From the NCBI GenBank assembly GCA_964016885.1, contig OZ024744.1:126356001-126420000 (forward strand): DNA of 64,000 bases. The letters are read 5' to 3'. This document shows positions 4,047-34,202 of this stretch, piece after piece. Each line of letters begins with the position of its first letter. Positions within the stretch are counted from its first letter, which is position 1. Position numbers and translations under genes: made by a program. The notes beneath the pieces were generated by a model. It did not search any database, had not been told where the DNA came from, and was given only the letters and a program-made list of their open reading frames with translations. Origin of the DNA: Eledone cirrhosa. Lineage: Eukaryota.

Positions 4047-4074
4047 CTTCTTCTAACTCTTCTGCACTTCCATT

Positions 4075-4106
4075 CTCTCACTCTCTCTCTCTCTCTCTCT
4101 CTCTCT
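4075..4106. repeat. (CT)n microsatellite
   Basis: Read directly from the sequence. Confidence 0.9.
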
Positions 4107-4329
4107 ATGCTTCTTTAGAACACATCTGCTGTATTCAGACCTGGAGCGGAGATGGGCTCCACCAAGTTTTAAAAATTGCCCTTTAAGCGCTGTATGTCAA
4201 TATGGTGCCCCTATGATTCCCTCCCTCAGGAGTTATGGGACCATAGATACTGTCAATTGTAAAGAATAACAGAGATATTCAGTGCTAGTGTGGTGTTCTG
4301 TCAGTTGTGGAGATTGATGAATCTAAACA

Positions 4330-4560
4330 GAAATATCAACAGCACTTTTCATTTCTGAGTAACACATTTGTTACCAAGTGCTGCATGGCTGGAATGAAAA
4401 TCAGTGCTGTGAAAACCAAGACATTCATCCTCTCAAGGAAGCTTGTGCAGTGCACTCTACATGTAAATGGAGTCCCACTGAAGCAGGTAGAAAAGTTCAT
4501 GTATCTCGAAGCTGTGTTCACGAGTGATGACAGAGACGGCAAAGGCACAACACACAACAG
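4330..4560 (+). mobile_element. LINE RT C-terminal fragment
   Basis: ORF 4307-4576 contains GMKISAVKTK...VNGVPLKQVEKFMYL, which matches the 'GLxIS..KTK...L..V..F.YLG' region downstream of the LINE RT YADD motif. Confidence 0.65.
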
Positions 4561-4667
4561 AAGAAAAGAACAATGACAATTATTATTATTATTATTATTA
4601 TTATTTGTTTTATTAGTTTTATTATAATAAAAATTGTGCTGTTAGTTTGCTTGCTATACCATCATGT

Positions 4668-4755
4668 ACCCTAACCCTAAACCTAACCCCAACTCCAACT
4701 CTGACCCTAAACCTAACCCCAACCCCAACCCTAACCCTAACCCTAACCCTAACCC
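4668..4755 (-). repeat. Interstitial telomeric repeat tract, (CCCTAA)n on + strand, partly degenerate
   Basis: About 14 hexamers: ccctaa ccctaa acctaa ccccaa ... ccctaa ccctaa ccctaa ccctaa ccc. TTAGGG is the established mollusc telomere repeat. Confidence 0.85.
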
Positions 4756-5344
4756 ACGATAGAAGACGTTCGTTACCGCTGGAGCAACGCAAATTACTCC
4801 TCGGTTGACGCCAAAAACGAACGCCTTCTCGACGGCTAGCCGCATTTCGTGATCCGCCTTTCGATTGCGCTTCCGTCGCGGAAAAAGAATTGCCTTTATA
4901 GGCCGCCGCCGCCGCCCGACCGGACCCACGATAGAAGACGTTCGTTACCGCTGGAGCAACGCAAATTACTCCTCGGTTGACGCCAAAAACGAACGCCTTC
5001 TCGACGGCTAGCCGCATTTCGTGATCCGCCTTTCGATTGCGCTTCCGTCGCGGAAAAAGAATTGCCTTTATAGGCCGCCGCCGCCGCCCGACCGGACCCA
5101 CGATAGAAGACGTTCGTTACCGCTGGAGCAACGCAAATTACTCCTCGGTTGACGCCAAAAACGAACGCCTTCTCGACGGCTAGCCGCATTTCGTGATCCG
5201 CCTTTCGATTGCGCTTCCGTCGCGGAAAAAGAATTGCCTTTATAGGCCGCCGCCGCCGCCCGACCGGACCCACGATAGAAGACGTTCGTTACCGCTGGAG
5301 CAACGCAAATTACTCCTCGGTTGACGCCAAAAACGAACGCCTTC
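4753..5344 (+). repeat. 172-bp GC/CpG-rich tandem repeat, ~3.4 copies; probable rDNA intergenic-spacer or ETS subrepeats
   Basis: cccacgatagaagacg at 4753, 4925, 5097 and 5269. A further partial copy lies at 5598-5650. The array sits directly upstream of an 18S 5' end, and each full unit has a tttatagg motif. Confidence 0.8.
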
Positions 5345-5693
5345 CGGTTCGGGCGACGTAAAAGTCTGTAGCCTTTTCGCCGATCCTCGACGATTATCCG
5401 CCTTCCGAACAACCGCCGTCACAGCAGTAGGTACTCGTCCGTCGTAATAGCCGTCATTTTAATGCAGGAGAAACGCCTAAATGCACTGCGATTAACGACG
5501 ATCTACGACGCGCTTACTCTTCCTTGCTGCGACGAAGGTTTCGTTCGGCTTTTCGTCGTGGACCCGGTCAGGTCATGCCGCTGATCTCGCGTTGCGTCGT
5601 TACCGCTGGAGCAACGCAAATTACTCCTCGTTTAACGCCAACATCGAACGCGCTTCGGTTCTCGGTCGTCGTTGTTTTGTTTCGTGCGGAAGA
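5345..5693 (+). other. 5' external transcribed spacer-like leader
   Basis: CpG-rich sequence between the spacer repeats and the first 18S nucleotide. Assignment is by position only. Confidence 0.5.
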
Positions 5694-5880
5694 TACCTGG
5701 GTGATCCTGCCAGTAGTCATATGCTTGTCTCAAAGCTTAAGCCATGCAAGTGGAAGTTCATGCCGTAAACGAAAATGGTGAAACCGCGAATGGCTCAGGA
5801 ACCGGATCTAATCCTCGGGACCGTATTCCTCACCGCGAGGAGAGGATAACTGTGGCAATTCTAGAGCTAATACATGCAAT
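5694..5880 (+). pseudogene. 18S rRNA: 18S rRNA 5' fragment (first ~185 nt, truncated)
   Basis: tacctgggtgatcctgccagtagtcatatgcttgtctcaaagcttaagccatgca...gaaaccgcgaatggctca...ggataactgtggcaattctagagctaatacatgc matches the canonical eukaryotic 18S start. It includes an exact NS1 primer site, gtagtcatatgcttgtctc. Confidence 0.93.
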
Positions 5881-8800
5881 TGAGATCGGAGAGGGAGCGA
5901 TCCGTCTGCTTGATTCCGATAACGAACGAGACATTCGTATCCGAAAGAACGTTTGTCTGGAAACTGGTGCAGTCAGTGAGTCGAAAAAAAAATATCTCGG
6001 TGGTAGTAGCAAATATTCGAACGAGACATTCGTATGCGAAAGAACGTTTGTCGGTGGTAGTAGCAAATATTCGAACGAGACATTCGTATGCGAAAGAACG
6101 TTTGTCGGTGGTAGTAGCAAATATTCGAACGAGACATTCGTATGCGAAAGAACGTTTGTCTGGAAGTGGCGATCCATGCCCGGTGGATAGTTGGTTCCGG
6201 GTTTTACTATGATTGTTGCAAAACAGAAACTTAAAGGGATTGACAGAATTTGCGATTCCGGAGAGAGGGCGATCCGTCTGCTTGATTCCGATAACGAACG
6301 AGACATTCGTATCCGAAAGAACGTTTGTCTGGAAACTGGTGAGTCAGTGAGTCGAAAAAAAAATATCTCGGTGGTAGTAGCAAATATTCGTATGCGAAAG
6401 AAAAGATCTCGGTGGTAGTAGCAAATATTCGAACGAGACATTCGTATGCGAAAGAACGTTTGTCTGGAAGTGGCGATCCATGCCCGGTGGATAGTTGGTT
6501 CCGGGTTTTACTATGATTGTTGCAAAACAGAAACTTAAAGGGATTGACAGAATTTGCGATTACGGAGAGGGGGCGATCCGTCTGCTTGATTCCGATAACG
6601 AACGAGACATTCGTATCCGAAAGAACGTTTGTCTGGAAACTGGTGAGTCAGTGAGTCGAAAAAAAAATATCTCGGTGGTAGTAGCAAATATTCGAACGAG
6701 ACATTCGTATGCGAAAGAACGTTTGTCGGTGGTAGTAGCAAATATTCGAACGAGACATTCGTATGCGAAAGAACGTTTGTCTGGAAGTGGCGATCCATGC
6801 CCGGTGGATAGTTGGTTCCGGGTTTTACTATGATTGTTGCAAAACAGAAACTTAAAGGGATTGACAGAATTTGCGATTACGGAGAGGGGGCGATCCGTCT
6901 GCTTGATTCCGATAACGAACGAGACATTCGTATCCGAAAGAACGTTTGTCTGGAAACTGGTGAGTCAGTGAGTCGAAAAAAAAAATATCTCGGTGGTAGT
7001 AGCAAATATTCGAACGAGACATTCGTATGCGAAAGAACGTTTGTCGGTGGTAGTAGCAAATATTCGAACGAGACATTCGTATGCGAAAGAACGTTTGTCG
7101 GTGGTAGTAGCAAATATTCGAACGAGACATTCGTATGCGAAAGAACGTTTGTCTGGAAGTGGCGATCCATGCTCGGTGGATAGTTGGTTCCGGGTTTTAC
7201 TATGATTGTTGCAAAACAGAAACTTAAAGGGATTGACAGAATTTGCGATTCCGGAGAGGGGGCGATCCGTCTGCTTGATTCCGATAACGAACGAGACATT
7301 CGTATCCGAAAGAACGTTTGTCTGGAAACTGGTGAGTCAGTGAGTCGAAAAAAAAATATCTCGGTGGTAGTAGCAAATATTCGTATGCGAAAGAAAAGAT
7401 CTCGGTGGTAGTAGCAAATATTCGAACGAGACATTCGTAGGCGAAAGAAAAATATCTCGGTGGTAGTAGCAAATATTCGAACGAGACATTCGTATTCGAA
7501 AGAACGTTTGTCTGGAAGTTGCGATCCATGCCCTGTGGATAGTTGGTTCCGGGTTTTACTATGATTGTTGCAAAACAGAAACTTAAAGGGATTGACAGAA
7601 TTTGCGATTCCGGAGAGGGGGCAATCCGTCTGCTTGATTCCGATAACGAACGAGATATTCGTATCCGAAAGAACGTTTGTCTGGAAACTGGTGAGTCAGT
7701 GAGTCGAAAAAAAAAATATCTCGGTGGTAGTAGCAAATATTCGAACGAGACATTCGTATGCGAAAGAACGTGTGTCGGTGGTAGTAGCAAATATTCGAAC
7801 GAGACATTCGTATGCGAAAGAACGTTTGTCTGGAAGTGGCGATCCATGCTCGGTGGATAGTTGGTTCCGGGTTTTACTATGATTGTTGCAAAACAGAAAC
7901 TTAAAGGGATTGACAGAATTTGCGATTCCGGAGAGGGGGCGATCCGTCTGCTTGATTCCGATAACGAACGAGACATTCGTATCCGAAAGAACGTTTGTCT
8001 GGAAACTGGTGAGTCAGTGAGTCGAAAAAAAAATATCTCGGTGGTAGTAGCAAATATTCGAACGAGACATTCGTATGCGAAAGAACGTTTGTCGGTGGTA
8101 GTAGCAAATATTCGAACGAGACATTCGTATGCGAAAGAACGTTTGTCGGTGGTAGTAGCAAATATTCGAACGAGACATTCGTATGCGAAAGAACGTTTGT
8201 CTGGAAACTGGTGAGTCAGTGAGTCGAAAAAAAAATATCTCGGTGGTAGTAGCAAATATTCGAACGAGACATTCGTATGCGAAAGAAAAATATCTCGGTG
8301 GTAGTAGCAAATATTCGAACGAGACATTCGTATGCGAAAGAACGTTTGTCTGGAAGTGGCGATCCATGCCCGGTGGATAGTTGGTTCCGGGTTTTACTAT
8401 GATTGTTGCAAAACAGAAACTTAAAGGGATTGACAGAATTTGCGATTCCGGAGAGGGGGCGATCCGTCTGCTTGATTCCGATAACGAACGAGACATTCGT
8501 ATCCGAAAGAACGTTTGTCTGGAAACTGGTGAGTCAGTGAGTCGAAAAAAAAATATCTCGGTGGTAGTAGCAAATATTCGAACGAGACATTCGTATGCGA
8601 AAGAACGTTTGTCGGTGGTAGTAGCAAATATTCGAACGAGACATTCGTATGCGAAAGAACGTTTGTCTGGAAGTGGCGATCCATGCCCGGTGGATAGTTG
8701 GTTCCGGGTTTTACTATGATTGTTGCAAAACAGAAACTTAAAGGGATTGACAGAATTTGCGATTCCGGAGAGGGGGCGATCCGTCTGCTTGATTCCGATA

Positions 8801-11800
8801 ACGAACGAGACATTCGTATCCGAAAGAACGTTTGTCTGGAAACTGGTGAGTCAGTGAGTCGAAAAAAAAATATCTCGGTGGTAGTAGCAAATATTCGAAC
8901 GAGACATTCGTATGCGAAAGAACGTTTGTCGGTGGTAGTAGCAAATATTCGAACGAGACATTCGTATGCGAAAGAACGTTTGTCTGGAAGTGGCGATCCA
9001 TGCCCGGTGGATAGTTGGTTCCGGGTTTTACTATGATTGTTGCAAAACAGAAACTTAAAGGGATTGACAGAATTTGCGATTACGGAGAGGGGGCGATCCG
9101 TCTGCTTGATTCCGATAACGAACGAGACATTCGTATCCGAAAGAACGTTTGTCTGGAAACTGGTGAGTCAGTGAGTCGAAAAAAAAATATCTCGGTGGTA
9201 GTAGCAAATATTCGTATGCGAAAGAAAAGATCTCGGTGGTAGTAGCAAATATTCGAACGAGACATTCGTAGGCGAAAGAAAAATATCTCGGTGGTAGTAG
9301 CAAATATTCGAACGAGACATTCGTATTCGAAAGAACGTTTGTCTGGAAGTTGCGATCCATGCCCGGTGGATAGTTGGTTCCGGGTTTTACTATGATTGTT
9401 GCAAAACAGAAACTTAAAGGGATTGACAGAATTTGCGATTCCGGAGAGGGGGCGATCCGTCTGCTTGATTCCGATAACGAACGAGACATTCGTATCCGAA
9501 AGAACGTTTGTCTGGAAACTGGTGAGTCAGTGAGTCGAAAAAAAAAATATCTCGGTGGTAGTAGCAAATATTCGAACGAGACATTCGTATGCGAAAGAAC
9601 GTTTGTCGGTGGTAGTAGCAAATATTCGAACGAGACATTCGTATGCGAAAGAACGTTTGTCGGTGGTAGTAGCAAATATTCGAACGAGACATTCGTATTC
9701 GAAAGAACGTTTGTCTGGAAGTGGCGATCCATGCCCGGTGGATAGTTGGTTCCGGGCTTTACTATGATTGTTGCAAAACAGAAACTTAAAGGGATTGACA
9801 GAATTTGCGATTCCGGAGAGGGGGCGATCCGTCTGCTTGATTCCGATAACGAACGAGACATTCGTATCCGAAAGAACGTTTGTCTGGAAACTGGTGAGTC
9901 AGTGAGTCGAAAAAAAAATATCTCGGTGGTAGTAGCAAATATTCGTATGCGAAAGAAAAGATCTCGGTGGTAGTAGCAAATATTCGAACGAGACATTCGT
10001 AGGCGAAAGAAAAATATCTCGGTGGTAGTAGCAAATATTCGAACGAGACATTCGTATTCGAAAGAACGTTTGTCTGGAAGTTGCGATCCATGCCCTGTGG
10101 ATAGTTGGTTCCGGGTTTTACTATGATTGTTGCAAAACAGAAACTTAAAGGGATTGACAGAATTTGCGATTCCGGAGAGGGGGCAATCCGTCTGCTTGAT
10201 TCCGATAACGAACGAGATATTCGTATCCGAAAGAACGTTTGTCTGGAAACTGGTGAGTCAGTGAGTCGAAAAAAAAAATATCTCGGTGGTAGTAGCAAAT
10301 ATTCGAACGAGACATTCGTATGCGAAAGAACGTGTGTCGGTGGTAGTAGCAAATATTCGAACGAGACATTCGTATGCGAAAGAACGTTTGTCTGGAAGTG
10401 GCGATCCATGCTCGGTGGATAGTTGGTTCCGGGTTTTACTATGATTGTTGCAAAACAGAAACTTAAAGGGATTGACAGAATTTGCGATTCCGGAGAGGGG
10501 GCGATCCGTCTGCTTGATTCCGATAACGAACGAGACATTCGTATCCGAAAGAACGTTTGTCTGGAAACTGGTGAGTCAGTGAGTCGAAAAAAAAATATCT
10601 CGGTGGTAGTAGCAAATATTCGAACGAGACATTCGTATGCGAAAGAACGTTTGTCGGTGGTAGTAGCAAATATTCGAACGAGACATTCGTATGCGAAAGA
10701 ACGTTTGTCGGTGGTAGTAGCAAATATTCGAACGAGACATTCGTATGCGAAAGAACGTTTGTCTGGAAACTGGTGAGTCAGTGAGTCGAAAAAAAAATAT
10801 CTCGGTGGTAGTAGCAAATATTCGAACGAGACATTCGTATGCGAAAGAAAAATATCTCGGTGGTAGTAGCAAATATTCGAACGAGACATTCGTATGCGAA
10901 AGAACGTTTGTCTGGAAGTGGCGATCCATGCCCGGTGGATAGTTGGTTCCGGGTTTTACTATGATTGTTGCAAAACAGAAACTTAAAGGGATTGACAGAA
11001 TTTGCGATTCCGGAGAGGGGGCGATCCGTCTGCTTGATTCCGATAACGAACGAGACATTCGTATCCGAAAGAACGTTTGTCTGGAAACTGGTGAGTCAGT
11101 GAGTCGAAAAAAAAATATCTCGGTGGTAGTAGCAAATATTCGAACGAGACATTCGTATGCGAAAGAACGTTTGTCGGTGGTAGTAGCAAATATTCGAACG
11201 AGACATTCGTATGCGAAAGAACGTTTGTCTGGAAGTGGCGATCCATGCCCGGTGGATAGTTGGTTCCGGGTTTTACTATGATTGTTGCAAAACAGAAACT
11301 TAAAGGGATTGACAGAATTTGCGATTCCGGAGAGGGGGCGATCCGTCTGCTTGATTCCGATAACGAACGAGACATTCGTATCCGAAAGAACGTTTGTCTG
11401 GAAACTGGTGAGTCAGTGAGTCGAAAAAAAAATATCTCGGTGGTAGTAGCAAATATTCGAACGAGACATTCGTATGCGAAAGAACGTTTGTCGGTGGTAG
11501 TAGCAAATATTCGAACGAGACATTCGTATGCGAAAGAACGTTTGTCTGGAAGTGGCGATCCATGCCCGGTGGATAGTTGGTTCCGGGTTTTACTATGATT
11601 GTTGCAAAACAGAAACTTAAAGGGATTGACAGAATTTGCGATTACGGAGAGGGGGCGATCCGTCTGCTTGATTCCGATAACGAACGAGACATTCGTATCC
11701 GAAAGAACGTTTGTCTGGAAACTGGTGAGTCAGTGAGTCGAAAAAAAAATATCTCGGTGGTAGTAGCAAATATTCGTATGCGAAAGAAAAGATCTCGGTG

Positions 11801-14800
11801 GTAGTAGCAAATATTCGAACGAGACATTCGTAGGCGAAAGAAAAATATCTCGGTGGTAGTAGCAAATATTCGAACGAGACATTCGTATTCGAAAGAACGT
11901 TTGTCTGGAAGTTGCGATCCATGCCCGGTGGATAGTTGGTTCCGGGTTTTACTATGATTGTTGCAAAACAGAAACTTAAAGGGATTGACAGAATTTGCGA
12001 TTCCGGAGAGGGGGCGATCCGTCTGCTTGATTCCGATAACGAACGAGACATTCGTATCCGAAAGAACGTTTGTCTGGAAACTGGTGAGTCAGTGAGTCGA
12101 AAAAAAAAATATCTCGGTGGTAGTAGCAAATATTCGAACGAGACATTCGTATGCGAAAGAACGTTTGTCGGTGGTAGTAGCAAATATTCGAACGAGACAT
12201 TCGTATGCGAAAGAACGTTTGTCGGTGGTAGTAGCAAATATTCGAACGAGACATTCGTATTCGAAAGAACGTTTGTCTGGAAGTGGCGATCCATGCCCGG
12301 TGGATAGTTGGTTCCGGGCTTTACTATGATTGTTGCAAAACAGAAACTTAAAGGGATTGACAGAATTTGCGATTCCGGAGAGGGGGCGATCCGTCTGCTT
12401 GATTTCGATAACGAACGAGACATTCGTATCCGAAAGAACGTTTGTCTGGAAACTGGTGAGTCAGTGAGTCGAAAAAAAAATATCTCGGTGGTAGTAGCAA
12501 ATATTCGAACGAGACATTCGTATGCGAAAGAACGTTTGTCGGTGGTAGTAGCAAATATTCGAACGAGACATTCGTATGCGAAAGAACGTTTGTCTGGAAG
12601 TGGCGATCCATGCCCGGTGGATAGTTGGTTCCGGGTTTTACTATGATTGTTGCAAAACAGAAACTTAAAGGGATTGACAGAATTTGCGATTACGGAGAGG
12701 GGGCGATCCGTCTGCTTGATTCCGATAACGAACGAGACATTCGTATCCGAAAGAACGTTTGTCTGGAAACTGGTGAGTCAGTGAGTCGAAAAAAAAAATA
12801 TCTCGGTGGTAGTAGCAAATATTCGAACGAGACATTCGTATGCGAAAGAACGTTTGTCGGTGGTAGTAGCAAATATTCGAACGAGACATTCGTATGCGAA
12901 AGAACGTTTGTCGGTGGTAGTAGCAAATATTCGAACGAGACATTCGTATGCGAAAGAACGTTTGTCTGGAAGTGGCGATCCATGCTCGGTGGATAGTTGG
13001 TTCCGGGTTTTACTATGATTGTTGCAAAACAGAAACTTAAAGGGATTGACAGAATTTGCGATTCCGGAGAGGGGGCGATCCGTCTGCTTGATTCCGATAA
13101 CGAACGAGACATTCGTATCCGAAAGAACGTTTGTCTGGAAACTGGTGAGTCAGTGAGTCGAAAAAAAAATATCTCGGTGGTAGTAGCAAATATTCGTATG
13201 CGAAAGAAAAGATCTCGGTGGTAGTAGCAAATATTCGAACGAGACATTCGTAGGCGAAAGAAAAATATCTCGGTGGTAGTAGCAAATATTCGAACGAGAC
13301 ATTCGTATTCGAAAGAACGTTTGTCTGGAAGTTGCGATCCATGCCCTGTGGATAGTTGGTTCCGGGTTTTACTATGATTGTTGCAAAACAGAAACTTAAA
13401 GGGATTGACAGAATTTGCGATTCCGGAGAGGGGGCAATCCGTCTGCTTGATTCCGATAACGAACGAGATATTCGTATCCGAAAGAACGTTTGTCTGGAAA
13501 CTGGTGAGTCAGTGAGTCGAAAAAAAAAATATCTCGGTGGTAGTAGCAAATATTCGAACGAGACATTCGTATGCGAAAGAACGTGTGTCGGTGGTAGTAG
13601 CAAATATTCGAACGAGACATTCGTATGCGAAAGAACGTTTGTCTGGAAGTGGCGATCCATGCTCGGTGGATAGTTGGTTCCGGGTTTTACTATGATTGTT
13701 GCAAAACAGAAACTTAAAGGGATTGACAGAATTTGCGATTCCGGAGAGGGGGCGATCCGTCTGCTTGATTCCGATAACGAACGAGACATTCGTATCCGAA
13801 AGAACGTTTGTCTGGAAACTGGTGAGTCAGTGAGTCGAAAAAAAAATATCTCGGTGGTAGTAGCAAATATTCGAACGAGACATTCGTATGCGAAAGAACG
13901 TTTGTCGGTGGTAGTAGCAAATATTCGAACGAGACATTCGTATGCGAAAGAACGTTTGTCGGTGGTAGTAGCAAATATTCGAACGAGACATTCGTATGCG
14001 AAAGAACGTTTGTCTGGAAACTGGTGAGTCAGTGAGTCGAAAAAAAAATATCTCGGTGGTAGTAGCAAATATTCGAACGAGACATTCGTATGCGAAAGAA
14101 AAATATCTCGGTGGTAGTAGCAAATATTCGAACGAGACATTCGTATGCGAAAGAACGTTTGTCTGGAAGTGGCGATCCATGCCCGGTGGATAGTTGGTTC
14201 CGGGTTTTACTATGATTGTTGCAAAACAGAAACTTAAAGGGATTGACAGAATTTGCGATTCCGGAGAGGGGGCGATCCGTCTGCTTGATTCCGATAACGA
14301 ACGAGACATTCGTATCCGAAAGAACGTTTGTCTGGAAACTGGTGAGTCAGTGAGTCGAAAAAAAAATATCTCGGTGGTAGTAGCAAATATTCGAACGAGA
14401 CATTCGTATGCGAAAGAACGTTTGTCGGTGGTAGTAGCAAATATTCGAACGAGACATTCGTATGCGAAAGAACGTTTGTCTGGAAGTGGCGATCCATGCC
14501 CGGTGGATAGTTGGTTCCGGGTTTTACTATGATTGTTGCAAAACAGAAACTTAAAGGGATTGACAGAATTTGCGATTCCGGAGAGGGGGCGATCCGTCTG
14601 CTTGATTCCGATAACGAACGAGACATTCGTATCCGAAAGAACGTTTGTCTGGAAACTGGTGAGTCAGTGAGTCGAAAAAAAAATATCTCGGTGGTAGTAG
14701 CAAATATTCGAACGAGACATTCGTATGCGAAAGAACGTTTGTCGGTGGTAGTAGCAAATATTCGAACGAGACATTCGTATGCGAAAGAACGTTTGTCTGG

Positions 14801-17800
14801 AAGTGGCGATCCATGCCCGGTGGATAGTTGGTTCCGGGTTTTACTATGATTGTTGCAAAACAGAAACTTAAAGGGATTGACAGAATTTGCGATTACGGAG
14901 AGGGGGCGATCCGTCTGCTTGATTCCGATAACGAACGAGACATTCGTATCCGAAAGAACGTTTGTCTGGAAACTGGTGAGTCAGTGAGTCGAAAAAAAAA
15001 TATCTCGGTGGTAGTAGCAAATATTCGTATGCGAAAGAAAAGATCTCGGTGGTAGTAGCAAATATTCGAACGAGACATTCGTAGGCGAAAGAAAAATATC
15101 TCGGTGGTAGTAGCAAATATTCGAACGAGACATTCGTATTCGAAAGAACGTTTGTCTGGAAGTTGCGATCCATGCCCGGTGGATAGTTGGTTCCGGGTTT
15201 TACTATGATTGTTGCAAAACAGAAACTTAAAGGGATTGACAGAATTTGCGATTCCGGAGAGGGGGCGATCCGTCTGCTTGATTCCGATAACGAACGAGAC
15301 ATTCGTATCCGAAAGAACGTTTGTCTGGAAACTGGTGAGTCAGTGAGTCGAAAAAAAAAATATCTCGGTGGTAGTAGCAAATATTCGAACGAGACATTCG
15401 TATGCGAAAGAACGTTTGTCGGTGGTAGTAGCAAATATTCGAACGAGACATTCGTATGCGAAAGAACGTTTGTCGGTGGTAGTAGCAAATATTCGAACGA
15501 GACATTCGTATTCGAAAGAACGTTTGTCTGGAAGTGGCGATCCATGCCCGGTGGATAGTTGGTTCCGGGCTTTACTATGATTGTTGCAAAACAGAAACTT
15601 AAAGGGATTGACAGAATTTGCGATTCCGGAGAGGGGGCGATCCGTCTGCTTGATTTCGATAACGAACGAGACATTCGTATCCGAAAGAACGTTTGTCTGG
15701 AAACTGGTGAGTCAGTGAGTCGAAAAAAAAATATCTCGGTGGTAGTAGCAAATATTCGTATGCGAAAGAAAAGATCTCGGTGGTAGTAGCAAATATTCGA
15801 ACGAGACATTCGTAGGCGAAAGAAAAATATCTCGGTGGTAGTAGCAAATATTCGAACGAGACATTCGTATTCGAAAGAACGTTTGTCTGGAAGTTGCGAT
15901 CCATGCCCGGTGGATAGTTGGTTCCGGGTTTTACTATGATTGTTGCAAAACAGAAACTTAAAGGGATTGACAGAATTTGCGATTCCGGAGAGGGGGCGAT
16001 CCGTCTGCTTGATTCCGATAACGAACGAGACATTCGTATCCGAAAGAACGTTTGTCTGGAAACTGGTGAGTCAGTGAGTCGAAAAAAAAAATATCTCGGT
16101 GGTAGTAGCAAATATTCGAACGAGACATTCGTATGCGAAAGAACGTTTGTCGGTGGTAGTAGCAAATATTCGAACGAGACATTCGTATGCGAAAGAACGT
16201 TTGTCGGTGGTAGTAGCAAATATTCGAACGAGACATTCGTATTCGAAAGAACGTTTGTCTGGAAGTGGCGATCCATGCCCGGTGGATAGTTGGTTCCGGG
16301 CTTTACTATGATTGTTGCAAAACAGAAACTTAAAGGGATTGACAGAATTTGCGATTCCGGAGAGGGGGCGATCCGTCTGCTTGATTCCGATAACGAACGA
16401 GACATTCGTATCCGAAAGAACGTTTGTCTGGAAACTGGTGAGTCAGTGAGTCGAAAAAAAAATATCTCGGTGGTAGTAGCAAATATTCGTATGCGAAAGA
16501 AAAGATCTCGGTGGTAGTAGCAAATATTCGAACGAGACATTCGTAGGCGAAAGAAAAATATCTCGGTGGTAGTAGCAAATATTCGAACGAGACATTCGTA
16601 TTCGAAAGAACGTTTGTCTGGAAGTTGCGATCCATGCCCTGTGGATAGTTGGTTCCGGGTTTTACTATGATTGTTGCAAAACAGAAACTTAAAGGGATTG
16701 ACAGAATTTGCGATTCCGGAGAGGGGGCAATCCGTCTGCTTGATTCCGATAACGAACGAGATATTCGTATCCGAAAGAACGTTTGTCTGGAAACTGGTGA
16801 GTCAGTGAGTCGAAAAAAAAAATATCTCGGTGGTAGTAGCAAATATTCGAACGAGACATTCGTATGCGAAAGAACGTGTGTCGGTGGTAGTAGCAAATAT
16901 TCGAACGAGACATTCGTATGCGAAAGAACGTTTGTCTGGAAGTGGCGATCCATGCTCGGTGGATAGTTGGTTCCGGGTTTTACTATGATTGTTGCAAAAC
17001 AGAAACTTAAAGGGATTGACAGAATTTGCGATTCCGGAGAGGGGGCGATCCGTCTGCTTGATTCCGATAACGAACGAGACATTCGTATCCGAAAGAACGT
17101 TTGTCTGGAAACTGGTGAGTCAGTGAGTCGAAAAAAAAATATCTCGGTGGTAGTAGCAAATATTCGAACGAGACATTCGTATGCGAAAGAACGTTTGTCG
17201 GTGGTAGTAGCAAATATTCGAACGAGACATTCGTATGCGAAAGAACGTTTGTCGGTGGTAGTAGCAAATATTCGAACGAGACATTCGTATGCGAAAGAAC
17301 GTTTGTCTGGAAACTGGTGAGTCAGTGAGTCGAAAAAAAAATATCTCGGTGGTAGTAGCAAATATTCGAACGAGACATTCGTATGCGAAAGAAAAATATC
17401 TCGGTGGTAGTAGCAAATATTCGAACGAGACATTCGTATGCGAAAGAACGTTTGTCTGGAAGTGGCGATCCATGCCCGGTGGATAGTTGGTTCCGGGTTT
17501 TACTATGATTGTTGCAAAACAGAAACTTAAAGGGATTGACAGAATTTGCGATTCCGGAGAGGGGGCGATCCGTCTGCTTGATTCCGATAACGAACGAGAC
17601 ATTCGTATCCGAAAGAACGTTTGTCTGGAAACTGGTGAGTCAGTGAGTCGAAAAAAAAATATCTCGGTGGTAGTAGCAAATATTCGAACGAGACATTCGT
17701 ATGCGAAAGAACGTTTGTCGGTGGTAGTAGCAAATATTCGAACGAGACATTCGTATGCGAAAGAACGTTTGTCTGGAAGTGGCGATCCATGCCCGGTGGA

Positions 17801-20800
17801 TAGTTGGTTCCGGGTTTTACTATGATTGTTGCAAAACAGAAACTTAAAGGGATTGACAGAATTTGCGATTCCGGAGAGGGGGCGATCCGTCTGCTTGATT
17901 CCGATAACGAACGAGACATTCGTATCCGAAAGAACGTTTGTCTGGAAACTGGTGAGTCAGTGAGTCGAAAAAAAAATATCTCGGTGGTAGTAGCAAATAT
18001 TCGAACGAGACATTCGTATGCGAAAGAACGTTTGTCGGTGGTAGTAGCAAATATTCGAACGAGACATTCGTATGCGAAAGAACGTTTGTCTGGAAGTGGC
18101 GATCCATGCCCGGTGGATAGTTGGTTCCGGGTTTTACTATGATTGTTGCAAAACAGAAACTTAAAGGGATTGACAGAATTTGCGATTACGGAGAGGGGGC
18201 GATCCGTCTGCTTGATTCCGATAACGAACGAGACATTCGTATCCGAAAGAACGTTTGTCTGGAAACTGGTGAGTCAGTGAGTCGAAAAAAAAATATCTCG
18301 GTGGTAGTAGCAAATATTCGTATGCGAAAGAAAAGATCTCGGTGGTAGTAGCAAATATTCGAACGAGACATTCGTAGGCGAAAGAAAAATATCTCGGTGG
18401 TAGTAGCAAATATTCGAACGAGACATTCGTATTCGAAAGAACGTTTGTCTGGAAGTTGCGATCCATGCCCGGTGGATAGTTGGTTCCGGGTTTTACTATG
18501 ATTGTTGCAAAACAGAAACTTAAAGGGATTGACAGAATTTGCGATTCCGGAGAGGGGGCGATCCGTCTGCTTGATTCCGATAACGAACGAGACATTCGTA
18601 TCCGAAAGAACGTTTGTCTGGAAACTGGTGAGTCAGTGAGTCGAAAAAAAAAATATCTCGGTGGTAGTAGCAAATATTCGAACGAGACATTCGTATGCGA
18701 AAGAACGTTTGTCGGTGGTAGTAGCAAATATTCGAACGAGACATTCGTATGCGAAAGAACGTTTGTCGGTGGTAGTAGCAAATATTCGAACGAGACATTC
18801 GTATTCGAAAGAACGTTTGTCTGGAAGTGGCGATCCATGCCCGGTGGATAGTTGGTTCCGGGCTTTACTATGATTGTTGCAAAACAGAAACTTAAAGGGA
18901 TTGACAGAATTTGCGATTCCGGAGAGGGGGCGATCCGTCTGCTTGATTTCGATAACGAACGAGACATTCGTATCCGAAAGAACGTTTGTCTGGAAACTGG
19001 TGAGTCAGTGAGTCGAAAAAAAAATATCTCGGTGGTAGTAGCAAATATTCGAACGAGACATTCGTATGCGAAAGAACGTTTGTCGGTGGTAGTAGCAAAT
19101 ATTCGAACGAGACATTCGTATGCGAAAGAACGTTTGTCTGGAAGTGGCGATCCATGCCCGGTGGATAGTTGGTTCCGGGTTTTACTATGATTGTTGCAAA
19201 ACAGAAACTTAAAGGGATTGACAGAATTTGCGATTACGGAGAGGGGGCGATCCGTCTGCTTGATTCCGATAACGAACGAGACATTCGTATCCGAAAGAAC
19301 GTTTGTCTGGAAACTGGTGAGTCAGTGAGTCGAAAAAAAAAATATCTCGGTGGTAGTAGCAAATATTCGAACGAGACATTCGTATGCGAAAGAACGTTTG
19401 TCGGTGGTAGTAGCAAATATTCGAACGAGACATTCGTATGCGAAAGAACGTTTGTCGGTGGTAGTAGCAAATATTCGAACGAGACATTCGTATGCGAAAG
19501 AACGTTTGTCTGGAAGTGGCGATCCATGCTCGGTGGATAGTTGGTTCCGGGTTTTACTATGATTGTTGCAAAACAGAAACTTAAAGGGATTGACAGAATT
19601 TGCGATTCCGGAGAGGGGGCGATCCGTCTGCTTGATTCCGATAACGAACGAGACATTCGTATCCGAAAGAACGTTTGTCTGGAAACTGGTGAGTCAGTGA
19701 GTCGAAAAAAAAATATCTCGGTGGTAGTAGCAAATATTCGTATGCGAAAGAAAAGATCTCGGTGGTAGTAGCAAATATTCGAACGAGACATTCGTAGGCG
19801 AAAGAAAAATATCTCGGTGGTAGTAGCAAATATTCGAACGAGACATTCGTATTCGAAAGAACGTTTGTCTGGAAGTTGCGATCCATGCCCTGTGGATAGT
19901 TGGTTCCGGGTTTTACTATGATTGTTGCAAAACAGAAACTTAAAGGGATTGACAGAATTTGCGATTCCGGAGAGGGGGCAATCCGTCTGCTTGATTCCGA
20001 TAACGAACGAGATATTCGTATCCGAAAGAACGTTTGTCTGGAAACTGGTGAGTCAGTGAGTCGAAAAAAAAAATATCTCGGTGGTAGTAGCAAATATTCG
20101 AACGAGACATTCGTATGCGAAAGAACGTGTGTCGGTGGTAGTAGCAAATATTCGAACGAGACATTCGTATGCGAAAGAACGTTTGTCTGGAAGTGGCGAT
20201 CCATGCTCGGTGGATAGTTGGTTCCGGGTTTTACTATGATTGTTGCAAAACAGAAACTTAAAGGGATTGACAGAATTTGCGATTCCGGAGAGGGGGCGAT
20301 CCGTCTGCTTGATTCCGATAACGAACGAGACATTCGTATCCGAAAGAACGTTTGTCTGGAAACTGGTGAGTCAGTGAGTCGAAAAAAAAATATCTCGGTG
20401 GTAGTAGCAAATATTCGAACGAGACATTCGTATGCGAAAGAACGTTTGTCGGTGGTAGTAGCAAATATTCGAACGAGACATTCGTATGCGAAAGAACGTT
20501 TGTCGGTGGTAGTAGCAAATATTCGAACGAGACATTCGTATGCGAAAGAACGTTTGTCTGGAAACTGGTGAGTCAGTGAGTCGAAAAAAAAATATCTCGG
20601 TGGTAGTAGCAAATATTCGAACGAGACATTCGTATGCGAAAGAAAAATATCTCGGTGGTAGTAGCAAATATTCGAACGAGACATTCGTATGCGAAAGAAC
20701 GTTTGTCTGGAAGTGGCGATCCATGCCCGGTGGATAGTTGGTTCCGGGTTTTACTATGATTGTTGCAAAACAGAAACTTAAAGGGATTGACAGAATTTGC

Positions 20801-23800
20801 GATTCCGGAGAGGGGGCGATCCGTCTGCTTGATTCCGATAACGAACGAGACATTCGTATCCGAAAGAACGTTTGTCTGGAAACTGGTGAGTCAGTGAGTC
20901 GAAAAAAAAATATCTCGGTGGTAGTAGCAAATATTCGAACGAGACATTCGTATGCGAAAGAACGTTTGTCGGTGGTAGTAGCAAATATTCGAACGAGACA
21001 TTCGTATGCGAAAGAACGTTTGTCTGGAAGTGGCGATCCATGCCCGGTGGATAGTTGGTTCCGGGTTTTACTATGATTGTTGCAAAACAGAAACTTAAAG
21101 GGATTGACAGAATTTGCGATTCCGGAGAGGGGGCGATCCGTCTGCTTGATTCCGATAACGAACGAGACATTCGTATCCGAAAGAACGTTTGTCTGGAAAC
21201 TGGTGAGTCAGTGAGTCGAAAAAAAAATATCTCGGTGGTAGTAGCAAATATTCGAACGAGACATTCGTATGCGAAAGAACGTTTGTCGGTGGTAGTAGCA
21301 AATATTCGAACGAGACATTCGTATGCGAAAGAACGTTTGTCTGGAAGTGGCGATCCATGCCCGGTGGATAGTTGGTTCCGGGTTTTACTATGATTGTTGC
21401 AAAACAGAAACTTAAAGGGATTGACAGAATTTGCGATTACGGAGAGGGGGCGATCCGTCTGCTTGATTCCGATAACGAACGAGACATTCGTATCCGAAAG
21501 AACGTTTGTCTGGAAACTGGTGAGTCAGTGAGTCGAAAAAAAAATATCTCGGTGGTAGTAGCAAATATTCGTATGCGAAAGAAAAGATCTCGGTGGTAGT
21601 AGCAAATATTCGAACGAGACATTCGTAGGCGAAAGAAAAATATCTCGGTGGTAGTAGCAAATATTCGAACGAGACATTCGTATTCGAAAGAACGTTTGTC
21701 TGGAAGTTGCGATCCATGCCCGGTGGATAGTTGGTTCCGGGTTTTACTATGATTGTTGCAAAACAGAAACTTAAAGGGATTGACAGAATTTGCGATTCCG
21801 GAGAGGGGGCGATCCGTCTGCTTGATTCCGATAACGAACGAGACATTCGTATCCGAAAGAACGTTTGTCTGGAAACTGGTGAGTCAGTGAGTCGAAAAAA
21901 AAAATATCTCGGTGGTAGTAGCAAATATTCGAACGAGACATTCGTATGCGAAAGAACGTTTGTCGGTGGTAGTAGCAAATATTCGAACGAGACATTCGTA
22001 TGCGAAAGAACGTTTGTCGGTGGTAGTAGCAAATATTCGAACGAGACATTCGTATTCGAAAGAACGTTTGTCTGGAAGTGGCGATCCATGCCCGGTGGAT
22101 AGTTGGTTCCGGGCTTTACTATGATTGTTGCAAAACAGAAACTTAAAGGGATTGACAGAATTTGCGATTCCGGAGAGGGGGCGATCCGTCTGCTTGATTT
22201 CGATAACGAACGAGACATTCGTATCCGAAAGAACGTTTGTCTGGAAACTGGTGAGTCAGTGAGTCGAAAAAAAAAATATCTCGGTGGTAGTAGCAAATAT
22301 TCGAACGAGACATTCGTATGCGAAAGAACGTTTGTCGGTGGTAGTAGCAAATATTCGAACGAGACATTCGTATGCGAAAGAACGTTTGTCGGTGGTAGTA
22401 GCAAATATTCGAACGAGACATTCGTATGCGAAAGAACGTTTGTCGGTGGTAGTAGCAAATATTCGAACGAGACATTCGTATGCGAAAGAACGTTTGTCTG
22501 GAAGTGGCGATCCATGCCCGGTGGATAGTTGGTTCCGGGTTTTACTATGATTGTTGCAAAACAGAAACTTAAAGGGATTGACAGAATTTGCGATTCCGGA
22601 GAGGGGGCGATCCGTCTGCTTGATTCCGATAACGAACGAGACATTCGTATCCGAAAGAACGTTTGTCTGGAAACTGGTGAGTCAGTGAGTCGAAAAAAAA
22701 AATATCTCGGTGGTAGTAGCAAATATTCGAACGAGACATTCGTATGCGAAAGAACGTTTGTCGGTGGTAGTAGCAAATATTCGAACGAGACATTCGTATG
22801 CGAAAGAACGTTTGTCGGTGGTAGTAGCAAATATTCGAACGAGACATTCGTATGCGAAAGAACGTTTGTCTGGAAGTGGCGATCCATGCCCGGTGGATAG
22901 TTGGTTCCGGGTTTTACTATGATTGTTGCAAAACAGAAACTTAAAGGGATTGACAGAATTTGCGATTCCGGAGAGAGGGCGATCCGTCTGCTTGATTCCG
23001 ATAACGAACGAGACATTCGTATCCGAGAGAACGTTTGTCTGGAAACTGGTGAGTCAGTGAGTCGAAAAAAAAATATCTCGGTGGTAGTAGCAAATATTCG
23101 AACGAGACATTCGTATGCGAAAGAAAAATATCTCGGTGGTAGTAGCAAATATTCGAACGAGACATTCGTATGCGAAAGAACGTTTGTCTGGAAGTGGCGA
23201 TCCATGCCCGGTGGATAGTTGGTTCCGGGTTTTACTATGATTGTTGCAAAACAGAAACTTAAAGGGATTGACAGAATTTGCCATTCCGGAGAGGGGGCGA
23301 TCCGTCTGCTTGATTCCGATAACGAACGAGACATTCGTATCCGAAAGAACGTTTGTCTGGAAACTGGTGAGTCAGTGAGTCGAAAAAAAAATATCTCGGT
23401 GGTAGTAGCAAATATTCGAACGAGACATTCGTATGCGAAAGAACGTTTGTCTGGAAGTGGCGATCCATGCTCGGTGGATAGTTGGTTCCGGGTTTTACTA
23501 TGATTGTTGCAAAACAGAAACTTAAAGGGATTGACAGAATTTGCGATTCCGGAGAGGGGGCGATCCGTCTGCTTGATTCCGATAACGAACGAGACATTCG
23601 TATCCGAAAGAACGTTTGTCTGGAAACTGGTGAGTCAGTGAGTCGAAAAAAAAATATCTCGGTGGTAGTAGCAAATATTCGTATGCGAAAGAAAAGATCT
23701 CGGTGGTAGTAGCAAATATTCGAACGAGACATTCGTAGGCGAAAGAAAAATATCTCGGTGGTAGTAGCAAATATTCGAACGAGACATTCGTATTCGAAAG

Positions 23801-24895
23801 AACGTTTGTCTGGAAGTTGCGATCCATGCCCGGTGGATAGTTGGTTCCGGGCTTTACTATGATTGTTGCAAAACAGAAACTTAAAGGGATTGACAGAATT
23901 TGCGATTCCGGAGAGGGGGCGATCCGTCTGCTTGATTTCGATAACGAACGAGACATTCGTATCCGAAAGAACGTTTGTCTGGAAACTGGTGAGTCAGTGA
24001 GTCGAAAAAAAAAATATCTCGGTGGTAGTAGCAAATATTCGAACGAGACATTCGTATGCGAAAGAACGTTTGTCGGTGGTAGTAGCAAATATTCGAACGA
24101 GACATTCGTATGCGAAAGAACGTTTGTCGGTGGTAGTAGCAAATATTCGAACGAGACATTCGTATGCGAAATAACGTTTGTCTGGAAGTGGCGATCCATG
24201 CCCGGTGGATAGTTGGTTCCGGGTTTTACTATGATTGTTGCAAAACAGAAACTTAAAGGGATTGACAGAATTTGCGATTCCAGAGAGAGGGCGATCCGTC
24301 TGCTTGATTCCGATAACGAACGAGACATTCGTATCCGAAAGAACGTTTGTCTGGAAACTGGTGAGTCAGTGAGTCGAAAAAAAAATATCTCGGTGGTAGT
24401 AGCAAATATTCGAACGAGACATTCGTATGCGAAAGAACGTTTGTCTGGAAGTGGCGATCCATGCTCGGTGGATAGTTGGTTCCGGGTTTTACTATGATTG
24501 TTGCAAAACAGAAACTTAAAGGGATTGACAGAATTTGCGATTCCGGAGAGGGGGCGATCCGTCTGCTTGATTCCGATAACGAACGAGACATTCGTATCCG
24601 AAAGAACGTTTGTCTGGAAACTGGTGAGTCAGTGAGTCGAAAAAAAAATATCTCGGTGGTAGTAGCAAATATTCGTATGCGAAAGAAAAGATCTCGGTGG
24701 TAGTAGCAAATATTCGAACGAGACATTCGTATGCGAAAGAAAAATATCTCGGTGGTAGTAGCAAATATTCGAACGAGACATTCGTATTCGAAAGAACGTT
24801 TGTCTGGAAGTTGCGATCCATGCCCGGTGGATAGTTGGTTCCGGGCTTTACTATGATTGTTGCAAAACAGAAACTTAAAGGAATTGACAGAATTT
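5881..24895 (+). repeat. rRNA-derived mosaic satellite: ~53 monomers of 263-520 bp with a variable-number 54-bp subrepeat and higher-order repeats
   Basis: Monomer starts (ttggttccggg) at 6191, 6495, 6812, 7184 and so on to 24476 and 24835. 18S-like pieces: ggttccggg..tatg..gttgcaaaacagaaacttaaagggattgacagaa, gattccggagagggggc, gtctgcttgattccgataacgaacgagac. 28S-like piece: atctcggtggtagtagcaaatattcgaacgaga (LR7 primer region). Confidence 0.92.
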
Positions 24896-24914
24896 TCGAA
24901 TCGACATCAACTCG

Positions 24915-25270
24915 GCTACGGCTATCCCGTCGAGTACGAGAGTATCGCGGGATCAGAGCAACGGTTTGCTAGGCTGCCTCTGAGCGATAACGGCTGAACG
25001 CCTCCTCTAAGCCGGAACCCTAGCCGGACCCGAGTTGTTTTTCGACAAGCGTCTCGACCTTCTTAAGGCCCATGCCTTAGTTTGGCGATTGCCGTCCGTT
25101 CGCCGACGGCGGCAGCGTCAGCGGAAATGCCATTCTGTGACGACTACGACGATTCGTCGTCGTCCATTCGATTTCCTGAAAGAGATAGAGACTAAAGTGA
25201 TCAAATTGTTCGGAGTTACGTGCTTAGTAGAGCAGCTACCACACTGCAATCTATTGAGAGTTTTCTGACG
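24915..25270 (+). pseudogene. 28S rRNA: 28S rRNA 3'-terminal fragment, internally deleted or diverged
   Basis: In correct order: sarcin-ricin loop core agtacgagag (24933-24942); gataacggctgaacgcctcctctaagccggaaccc (LR12 region, ~24986-25020); gtagagcagctaccacactgcaatctattgagagt (25227-25261), matching the 28S terminus gcagagcagctccctcgctgcgatctattgaaagt. Confidence 0.8.
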
Positions 25271-25660
25271 AACGATACAATCCGCCCACGTGGCGCCAGA
25301 AAGGGAGAAGAAAAGAAAAGTTAGACGCCGCCGATCGATCGGTTCGTTGTTTTACGTGTACACAGCTTGTGTGTGTGTCTGTATGTGATACAAGCCGCCT
25401 ATCCGTCTTCCAAGTAAGTTTTGTGTGTAGACTGCGGAAAGAAATCCAATCCGCCGTCTAGGCGGTTCTGCCGCCGACCCATACTTTTGCGAGTCGCTCC
25501 CGGGAAAGACAGGCGGCAAGACGGCGTGTATACACGACGCCTTCCGTCTTCCGCCTCGAACCCGGGCAAACGTTCCTTTATTCGTCCACGCCTTCCCGCT
25601 TCGATCGCGAGAAAGTAATCAATCTGTTTTGTGTGTGTGTCTGTGTGTGATACAAATTTG
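25271..25660 (+). other. 3' ETS / spacer-like CpG-rich segment
   Basis: CpG-rich sequence right after the 28S 3' end, with a duplicated tgtgtgtgtgtctgt(a/g)tgtgatacaa motif at ~25368 and ~25632. Assignment is by position. Confidence 0.4.
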
Positions 25661-25697
25661 TTTTCTTAATTTGATAACCATGAATTGTTTCAACACC

Positions 25698-25713
25698 GGC
25701 CCTTTTAAGGGCC
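25698..25713 (+). promoter_or_regulatory. Replication-dependent histone mRNA 3' stem-loop motif (orphan)
   Basis: caacacc-GGCCCT-TTTA-AGGGCC-ac has a 6-bp stem, a 4-nt loop and A/C-rich flanks, fitting the SLBP-binding consensus. No histone CDS upstream. Confidence 0.5.
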
Positions 25714-25889
25714 ACTTATATTTTCAATAATCAGTTTAAATGGGTTGCACCGTAGCCACTTGGTAATACACTGCAAATCTCCCGTCAATCTATGAAGGTT
25801 TTGTAGTAGATTAGATCAAAACACAATCAGCAAGACAGTAATGGAATGAATAATATAAACATTTGTTTATAATTAAAGCCTTAAGATGT

Positions 25890-34120: not shown

Positions 34121-34202
34121 ACGGACAGAGTATTCGGTTTATTTTCTTGACATATTTCTTTACATATTGTCCAGGCATGCACTTTTTCCATGATTAGTTC
34201 TG

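Follow-up and report, generated by a model that had tools for sequence, protein, structure and literature searches.

The window analysed here is a 64,000-nt stretch of the Eledone cirrhosa genome. At 4668–25660 it contains an element in which a telomere-like tract, 172-bp repeats, a leader, the 18S head, a satellite core, the 28S tail and a trailer follow one another, all on the + strand (Table 1). This one-strand anatomy in rDNA order, which the original prediction had proposed, was confirmed by TRF, Rfam and alignments to intact units, and 58 % of the core lay in exact 11-mers of the intact unit, compared with 2 % (maximum 8 %) in 50 shuffles. The loss of most of 18S and 28S was likewise upheld: ~850 of the 10,539 nt of the 18S–28S span are represented, and complete 18S, 5.8S and 28S are not present.

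Table 1. Features of the window element and its surroundings
Feature	Position	Strand	Evidence and remarks
Candidate last exon of a macro-unit transcript	3611..4650 (end approximate)	+	Acceptor-like AG ending at 3610, AATAAA at 4626; strand and splicing predicted
Telomere-like CCCTAA tract	4668..4755	+	TRF; perfect beside the junction, degenerate farther away
172-bp repeat, 3.4 copies	4752..5344	+	TRF; 91–95 % to 5'ETS of intact unit, 18S minus 1949 to minus 1604
Leader, deleted mosaic of 5'ETS pieces and the final ~45 nt before 18S	5345..5693	+	84–95 %, several blocks
18S 5' end, nt 1–187 (plus four loosely aligned bases)	5694..5884	+	Rfam RF01960, E 8.9e-13; alignment to intact 18S
Satellite core, 19,017 nt	5887..24903	+	Exact matches, local alignments with shuffles, module counts
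First ITS1-derived module, ITS1 nt 289–307	5934..5952	+	19/19 identical
28S 3' end, ~nt 5882–6342 and ~30 nt beyond	24904..25320	+	Rfam RF02543, E 8.8e-12; alignment
Trailer, mosaic of spacer pieces, mainly 28S plus 2071 to 2354	25321..25660	+	80 % match
Histone 3' stem-loop match just beyond trailer	25693..25737	+	RF00032, 36.6 bits (cut-off 34)
Separate 28S fragment, nt 691–895	26485..26695	+	87.5 % match
16-bp telomere-like minisatellite, 14 copies	26695..26925	+	TRF; sense opposite to left tract

The telomere-like tract, which has ACCC in common with the first ETS bases, was not present in three intact rDNA regions. The 172-bp repeats, originally described as spacer-like, matched sequence downstream of the predicted transcription start and are therefore 5'ETS rather than spacer promoter; most sister units possess three to eight copies, and one has ~11. 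The 187 nt of the 18S head were ~97 % identical to the genome's intact 18S, from which they differed by three substitutions and two small indels, one of these in the loop of the first helix. The 28S tail (the last ~460 nt of 28S) had three internal deletions (26, 33 and 6 nt) and ~10 % substitutions. The trailer ends before the first spacer promoter-like motif of the intact unit, and no poly(A) tail was found after 25320 or 25660. When aligned to the genuine unit, the repeats, leader and trailer all had counterparts (80–95 % identity); the lack of counterparts that might have undone the earlier idea of a defective rDNA derivative did not occur, and that idea stands. CpG depletion was not seen in the element.

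The core comprised 53 large modules (263–520 nt), a 28S module present 146 times and exact block duplications of 6,619, 3,250 and 2,750 nt. Its modules derive from 18S (nt 575–592, 2042–2080, 1843–1896 and 1976–1986), 28S (nt 2081–2116 and 1392–1413) and ITS1 (nt 289–307), together with an A8–11 tract and a 25-nt piece that may come from 5.8S or 28S ~1428. The tandem monomer was thus homologous, in the exact 11-mer test, to the species' own rDNA and mapped to 18S, ITS1 and 28S, not to the intergenic spacer; only the flanking 172-bp repeat was ETS-derived. ITS sequence had not been recognised at first, but the ITS1 module is an exact 19-mer, compared with a longest exact match of 15 in 200 shuffles. 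The best match of the 25-nt piece under permissive alignment was to 5.8S (p 0.003 when tested post hoc on 5.8S by itself, 0.074 within the colinear interval and 0.34 for the whole unit), and 28S ~1428 is a candidate source that is just as colinear; a 5.8S scrap within the core is possible.

The predicted Pol I start motif of the intact unit, TATATAGGG, lies at 18S minus 2167, and the 172-bp repeats begin ~215 bp downstream of it. The motif, by which alone the start was assigned, agreed at 11 of 12 positions with the arthropod consensus as given in PMC2590618 and also recurs in spacer sub-repeats. With up to five mismatches allowed, searches of the array (264 kb), the C18 copy (60 kb) and 20 further loci gave no match to the motif, whereas three intact rDNA regions yielded 29, 9 and 13 matches. 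No match to the consensus with two or fewer mismatches was found in window positions 4000–5900. The spacer sub-repeats that carry the motif are exactly the part missing from the element. At the other end, the trailer lacks any tract of at least five T; the four present in intact 28S +1..+2100 are all missing, poly(T) being no more than a putative terminator in marine invertebrates according to the account in PMC6730533. The proposal that Pol I cis-signals had been retained was for the most part not borne out.

Genome-wide, 59 heads and 61 tails were identified by exact junctions. Forty-three heads lay on one strand of contig C28 across 1.73 Mb, at a spacing of 28–91 kb (median 37.8 kb). The element is repeated as part of a ~38-kb tandem macro-unit, transposon debris included, whose parts are 99–100 % identical among copies and which provides the one context shared by all chromosome-scale copies. 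The array is a macrosatellite or tandem segmental array in having a multi-kb unit, head-to-tail arrangement, high identity and variable internal length. One satellite junction occurred in 909 exact copies. One unit lacked the leader and 18S head, and the C18 copy lacked the trailer. Listed 18S and 5.8S matches (29 of 40 and 11 of 11 scored, both floors) fell on C1–C12 and C25, with none on C28 or C18, and among these matches the array appears to lie away from intact rDNA arrays. No less-deleted precursor was found; tail- and satellite-junction patterns on chromosome-scale contigs were confined to C18 and C28 among the matches listed (100 of the 909 copies for the satellite junction).

The only convincing long ORF in the macro-unit was an intact LINE ORF, antisense, and no host protein gene was detected. 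Exon-like blocks matched only array copies among 40 scored of 414 candidates. No other structured RNA was seen in the macro-unit: the 150 Rfam matches listed, of 276, were all below cut-off and nearly all were miRNA models on simple repeats. Nucleotide diversity among 7–19 copies was 0–0.0007 in the leader, head, tail and trailer and 0–0.0004 in neighbouring transposon debris; since the flanks were no less diverse than the debris, no extra constraint was visible, although the test has low power given the homogeneity of the array.

In short-read runs X1 and X2 the element was about as abundant as true rDNA, and in run X21 a macro-unit tag reached ~0.8 of the true-28S tag. The ~1 : 1 ratio in two samples counts against the explanation favoured below. 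The macro-unit was also present in a second, independent individual. Three runs with other organism labels (X4, X5 and X7) held exact satellite pieces at depth 2–36 only; conservation in other organisms was rejected in favour of DNA carry-over, because in X4 the pieces are accompanied by true rDNA of organism-A type, at a uniform depth of 4–5. Only true-type rRNA was found in X19 (RNA, mollusc metagenome).

Transcription was assessed in one RNA-like run, X6, for which no library type, strand or tissue is recorded and whose contigs show neither level nor strand. Exact contigs covered ~3732–4472 of the block upstream of the element (depth 425–644), and a chimeric satellite contig had depth 114. 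Element-type leader, 18S head and 28S tail were all at 0 in this single run, despite values of ~500 for true 5'ETS and 3,903 for true 18S, so that the ~20-kb Pol I RNA originally suggested found no support. The satellite contig is not explained by DNA carry-over: the neighbouring high-copy satellite was at 0 in X6, and so was the 28S tail. All 58 tracts of at least eight A are in the core, which could explain oligo-dT capture of the core without its flanks. The pattern is compatible with weak read-through, and not with a 20-kb Pol I RNA. The upstream block is likely to be the source of such read-through; its acceptor-like AG was read by eye and was not listed by a regular-expression scan for acceptors. 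The RNA origin of the block was judged from the best 40 of 9,246 candidates, and its RNA could come from a near-identical paralogue outside those scored. The other possibility raised at the outset, an inert orphon, was closer to the mark, but the element is one of ~60 tandem copies, and its satellite was detected in X6.

Most measured junctions showed microhomology of 3–10 nt. In three long-range junctions, chosen as direct overlaps, it amounted to 5, 6 and 10 nt (0.7, 0.3 and 0.01 % of random pairs, respectively), and six of eight local deletions had at least 3 nt (null 7 %); several junctions lacked microhomology and had short insertions instead. Similar small microhomology deletions occurred throughout the ETS, 28S and spacer parts. 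The element is probably a promoterless, repeatedly deleted copy of 45S rDNA, the middle of which was turned into a satellite by joins and loops at microhomologies, and which was amplified as a passenger of the macro-unit, with weak read-through at most. Its history would have begun with a displaced rDNA copy, of a type scattered over the genome, that was inserted or broken ~215 bp within the 5'ETS. Deletions and template switches at short common words, seen as junctions and presumably made by an enzyme, would then have reduced it to scraps. A 10-nt word common to 18S 2071–2080 and 28S 2107–2116 would permit a back-jump closing a 54-bp loop, and more back-jumps would close a ~317-bp loop. Growth and shrinkage of the loops, presumably by unequal exchange, may account for the observed length variation (0.7–19 kb) and block duplications. 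The entire block, with its transposon debris, was tandemly repeated with near-identity of sequence. Finally, with roughly equal chances of being right or wrong, an upstream + strand transcript ending at AATAAA before the element may leak into it at ~1–2 %.

One alternative is that the length of the window copy alone is an assembly artefact, which we regard as unlikely. Its core is longer than any of the other 56 (second longest 13,377 nt; median 5.8 kb), it contains the perfect duplications described above, and none of the examined read records covers a whole unit. The earlier figure of 19 kb describes this copy as assembled and is an outlier within the family.

It is decidedly unlikely that the array serves as a regulated supply of RNA matching rRNA, in which read-through of the macro-unit feeds a small-RNA pathway acting on rDNA or its parasites. 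Such a role would be consistent with the X6 contigs of satellite and upstream block beside flanks at 0, with the ~900 modules of conserved rRNA words, with transposon pieces in both orientations and the antisense LINE ORF, and with Piwi silencing of aberrant rRNA genes as described for Drosophila (bioRxiv 10.1101/2025.04.30.651568). However, the putative transcript is sense to rRNA, the element shows no extra conservation and A-tract capture by itself can account for the signal. Should the weak RNA signal be real and processed, the array would be a natural source of rRNA-matching small RNAs, which is testable. We consider improbable the stronger version, a promoterless 'shadow rDNA' array whose copy number is matched to that of the real rRNA genes and whose ~900 modules, read through from a spliced upstream RNA, act as guides or decoys regulating rDNA.

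A mosaic formed at the RNA level, by a reverse transcriptase that jumped among pre-rRNA fragments and yielded an inserted chimeric cDNA, likewise has a low probability. The element begins near the 5' end of the predicted pre-rRNA, all scraps are sense, some junctions lack homology and a LINE ORF is at hand in the macro-unit; but the trailer is spacer from ~2 kb beyond the 28S end with no poly(A) tail following it, and the microhomology deletions are alike in ETS, 28S and spacer.

Pseudo-NORs are engineered, silent arrays of UBF-binding enhancers, defined by UBF binding and by recruitment of Pol I factors without transcription. The element resembles them in being a large, apparently silent array that is made of repeats from rDNA flanks and lies apart from intact genes, whereas pseudo-NORs are recognized by UBF binding and the Eledone repeats derive from 5'ETS, not from promoter-bearing spacer repeats. 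It is very improbable that the element is a minimal unit on which Pol I remains active, with a new start perhaps lying within the 172-bp repeats, or a pseudo-NOR or decoy that binds Pol I factors. Both gene ends are kept in rDNA order, abundance is close to that of true rDNA, CpG depletion is absent and two changes in the 172-bp repeat create TTTATAGG. Against this, the resulting TATAGG site has more than two mismatches to the consensus, the promoter-like motif was lost together with the spacer sub-repeats bearing it, X6 contained no element-type leader or head, and units without head or trailer persist. That the whole family is an assembly artefact is scarcely tenable, as mismatch-free element-type contigs at depth 3,600–4,200 were obtained from X1 and X2, and the raw data of another study's sample likewise contain reads from the satellite and the macro-unit.

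The promoterless, looped rDNA derivative favoured here has partial parallels. In tomato, too, a satellite had its origin in a broken rDNA unit and grew through recombination and segmental duplication; its monomer is described as a spacer sub-repeat, with coding sequence eliminated (PMC2679016), whereas the Eledone monomer consists of scraps of 18S, ITS1 and 28S, the spacer repeats that bear the promoter were lost and both gene ends kept. The As51 satellite of characiform fishes, also an animal satellite of proposed 45S origin that spread outside the unit, has a simple spacer-derived monomer, with no coding mosaic or kept 18S/28S ends in the available description (PMC13170303). Human displaced rDNA pseudogenes similarly lie outside arrays and decay to short rDNA-like strings (PMC5381670), but are portrayed as degrading and dispersed, whereas the Eledone element became a satellite by looping and was then amplified again until it roughly equalled true rDNA in abundance, with barely diverged copies. 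SINE28 and other rDNA-bearing mobile elements also carry rRNA fragments, including 28S, in multicopy non-rDNA repeats; those covered in PMC10946416 are dispersed transposons, whereas the Eledone element is tandem, has no poly(A) tail and travels as part of a ~38-kb block. No satellite assembled from several rRNA coding scraps was found in the literature searched.

The birth of a satellite from unique gene sequence is unusually clear here, with the source gene, the microhomologies at its junctions, the nested loops and lengths that span a 26-fold range together in one genome. Since the element roughly equals true rDNA in abundance and contains conserved rRNA words, read-depth estimates of copy number, FISH probes and short primers placed on the 18S 5' end or on those words are likely to be confounded in Eledone cirrhosa.

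Beyond the trailer, the histone 3' stem-loop match had no histone ORF upstream of it. The opposite-sense telomere-like tracts at 4668 and 26695 hinted at a linear mini-chromosome with telomeres at both ends; this reading was rejected, since other parts of the macro-unit also have degenerate tracts of this kind and the stretch between the two contains non-rDNA sequence.

The element at 4668–25660 of the window is real and structurally odd. The window spans 126,356,001–126,420,000 of C28 (contig OZ024744.1) in the 3.0 Gb Eledone cirrhosa genome, and sequence, repeat and Rfam scans bore out the part order and single strand claimed in the original prediction (table below). Both rRNA ends were matched by Rfam when scanned alone (E = 8.9e-13 for 18S and 8.8e-12 for 28S); the whole window, at gathering level, gave a histone 3' stem-loop as its sole match. 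This stem-loop (25693–25737), which exceeds the Rfam cut-off, lies directly 3' of the trailer, and no histone ORF was seen by it.

Parts of the element and rDNA-derived modules of its satellite core
Feature	Position in window	Source in intact unit	Strand	Basis or detail
CCCTAA-like tract	4668–4755		+	
172-bp repeat	4752–5344		+	3.4 copies
Leader	5345–5693		+	
18S 5' end	5694–5884		+	
Satellite core	5887–24903		+	19,017 nt
28S 3' end	24904–25320		+	
Trailer	25321–25660		+	
Core module		18S 575–592		exact matches/local alignment
Core module		18S 2042–2080		exact matches/local alignment
Core module		ITS1 289–307		19/19 identical
Core module		28S 2081–2116		exact matches/local alignment
Core module		28S 1392–1413		score 32, reached by 0/60 shuffles
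Core modules		18S 1843–1896 and 18S 1976–1986		exact matches/local alignment

Intact 45S units exist elsewhere in the same genome, and the one on C12, which has a period of 22.5 kb, an 18S of 2,876 nt and a 28S of 6,342 nt, served as reference. As predicted, the flanking parts had genuine rDNA counterparts, with identities of 91–95 % for the 172-bp repeats, 84–95 % (in blocks) for the leader and ~80 % for the trailer. A displaced rDNA copy would have been the source of the element. Scattered intact rDNA units and promoter-motif fragments, often 1–3 units, were found on C1, C2, C3, C4, C6, C7, C10, C12 and C25; given this spread over many chromosomes, displaced rDNA is a common feature of the genome.

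Genome-wide counts were 59 for the head junction (43 on C28, one on C18 and 15 on unplaced contigs), 61 for the tail junction and 909 for one of the satellite junctions. The C28 heads span 1.73 Mb on a single strand at a median spacing of 37.8 kb, and the macro-unit, the ~38-kb tandem block carrying the element, also contains debris of SINEs, LINEs and other satellites, an open LINE ORF and two rDNA pieces, one a second ETS fragment and the other from 28S. The element has thus been amplified in tandem together with unrelated debris, and with length variation: the core measured 731–19,017 nt (median 5,794) in 57 of the 59 heads, the set omitting one reverse-strand and one tail-less head. The window's core was the longest measured and is made of perfect block duplications of up to 6,619 nt; unequal exchange would account for such length changes. 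Diversity among 7–19 copies was 0–0.0007 in the rDNA-derived flanks, 0–0.0004 in neighbouring debris and 0.0027 in the 28S fragment. As the copies are near-identical yet ~2–10 % diverged from true rDNA, gutting predates amplification. No extra constraint on the element was visible from copy diversity, a test to which the homogeneity of the array leaves little power. The element is probably a passenger; it is likely that it represents a promoterless, multiply deleted 45S copy carried by the macro-unit and at most weakly read through. That the array serves as a source of small RNAs appears doubtful.

The element is of rDNA origin and mosaic in order. Exact 11-mers of the intact unit covered 58 % of the core, compared with 2 % in 50 shuffles. 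The first pass through the core keeps the order of the 45S unit (18S, 18S, 18S, ITS1, 28S), and later joins jump backwards, closing one loop of 54 bp and another of ~317 bp; a 25-nt piece has 5.8S or 28S ~1428 as candidate sources. Three long-range joins, selected for direct overlap, had overlaps of 5, 6 and 10 nt, which random pairs reached in 0.7, 0.3 and 0.01 % of 20,000 draws. Eight local deletions were aligned in the leader, 28S tail, trailer and 28S fragment, six with microhomology of at least 3 nt (null 7 %) and two with 0–1 nt. Other joins carried short insertions in place of overlaps, and the 10-nt junction word was one of 222 repeated 10-mers across the transcribed span. These data favour microhomology-guided repair or template switching, short of proof because other joins carry insertions and the long-range joins were chosen for overlap. 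Microhomology-guided joining would have stitched the scraps into the mosaic. An origin of the mosaic at the RNA level, a reading that touches its origin alone, is unlikely.

In the intact unit, the motif TATATAGGG is located at 18S minus 2167, and each ~709-bp spacer sub-repeat has a copy as well; in two other intact units, the distance from the last upstream copy to 18S is 1,536 and 1,787 nt. Of the 12 positions of the arthropod start consensus, the motif agrees with 11. The available text of two papers describes spacer copies of such start motifs as spacer promoters (PMC2590618, PMC3036644), and that of a third gives the mussel context (PMC6730533). From its sequence, the motif is predicted to be the Pol I promoter of the intact unit. 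The earliest position represented in the element is 18S minus 1949, ~215 bp downstream of the predicted promoter motif. Even with 5 mismatches allowed, the 24-nt motif had no match in 264 kb of array sequence, in 60 kb of C18 or in 20 additional loci of 10 kb each; three intact rDNA regions gave 29, 9 and 13 matches with no more than 3 mismatches. Exact matches numbered 236 genome-wide, of which the 100 listed end at C12 and are thus uninformative for C28. The trailer omits most of the 2 kb 3' of 28S, including all four T≥5 tracts there. The element therefore lacks a promoter-like motif, and the proposed retention of Pol I cis-signals was not supported.

X6, a run with the same species label from a different sample (contigs totalling 88 Mb, library type not on record), behaves like RNA: depths were 3,903 for true 18S, 7,185 for true 28S and ~500 for true ETS, and the adjacent high-copy satellite was at zero. 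None of the element-type parts, whether leader, 18S head, 28S tail or trailer, was present in it. A 289-nt chimeric satellite contig was present at depth 113.9, which speaks against full silence and counts against the suggested inert orphon. Exact contigs also covered window ~3732–4472 at depth 425–644; the satellite depth of 114, divided by ~15 modules per unit, gives ~7 per unit, i.e. 1–2 % of this upstream-block signal. The AATAAA at which the upstream block ends (4626) directly precedes the element; tracts of A≥8 are confined to the core. An upstream transcript reading through into the element, with oligo-dT capture, would fit the pattern in this single run, whose contigs carry neither strand nor level. 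The ~20-kb repetitive Pol I RNA once envisaged found no support in X6, true ETS being present without element-type leader or 18S head; with the promoter motif also missing from the array, a Pol I unit or pseudo-NOR is very unlikely.

The element was also present in short reads. Mismatch-free element-type contigs reached depths of 3,714–4,171 in the DNA-like run X1, compared with 3,347–3,692 for true-rDNA alleles, and 3,614–4,015 in X2, compared with 3,800–4,526, so that the family and true rDNA are of roughly equal abundance. Both runs may come from the assembly's own sample. Such contigs at high depth make an assembly artefact extremely improbable for the family. RAD reads of the same species label from another study (X21) included 3,178 with a macro-unit-specific end and 3,974 molecules starting at a true-28S site, both at GCATGC sites, with satellite reads at low depth; as RAD tags are biased, these indicate presence in a second individual more than a ratio.

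The element behaves as an rDNA-derived satellite or amplified rDNA pseudogene. With a monomer derived from coding and ITS sequence, it falls outside the spacer-derived type described in the accessible text for tomato (PMC2679016) and As51 (PMC13170303). On the same partial basis, re-amplification sets it apart from degrading human rDNA orphons (PMC5381670), and its tandem, tail-less form from SINE28-type elements (PMC10946416). Among the hits listed in full-text searches of largely non-subscription literature, none was a satellite assembled from multiple scraps of rRNA coding sequence and flanked by surviving ends of 18S and 28S.

Several further arrangements were observed. At C28:125.60 Mb (L096–L097), ~11 ETS repeats join the satellite directly, without leader or 18S head, and the copy at C18:6.731–6.735 Mb breaks off inside the 28S tail, after which comes a second start that lacks the head. 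A second satellite (window 26926–34124 and later blocks) has units of 1.58 or 1.78 kb that are composed of 196-bp repeats and have long inverted arms; it forms one block of at least 18 kb on C18 and had zero depth in X6. An open LINE ORF of 957 aa, encoding endonuclease and reverse transcriptase domains, lies ~5.6–8.5 kb upstream of the window (L077:1488–4358, minus strand). It was identical in three of the four C28 copies compared, with a 1-nt indel in the remaining copy, and the array probably holds dozens of identical copies. The second 5'ETS fragment (L077:7831–8665) is less deleted than that of the element, again has a CCCTAA-like tract ahead of it and is closely followed by exon-like blocks at L077:8906–8925 and 9040–9108; judged by sequence, it could be a putative CpG-island promoter for a macro-unit transcript. 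An exon-like motif (TECTG/TECTW in one frame) follows acceptor-like sequence at window 3616, 3668, 3732, 37653, 41722 and 52659, and may be what is left of a gene duplicated in tandem.
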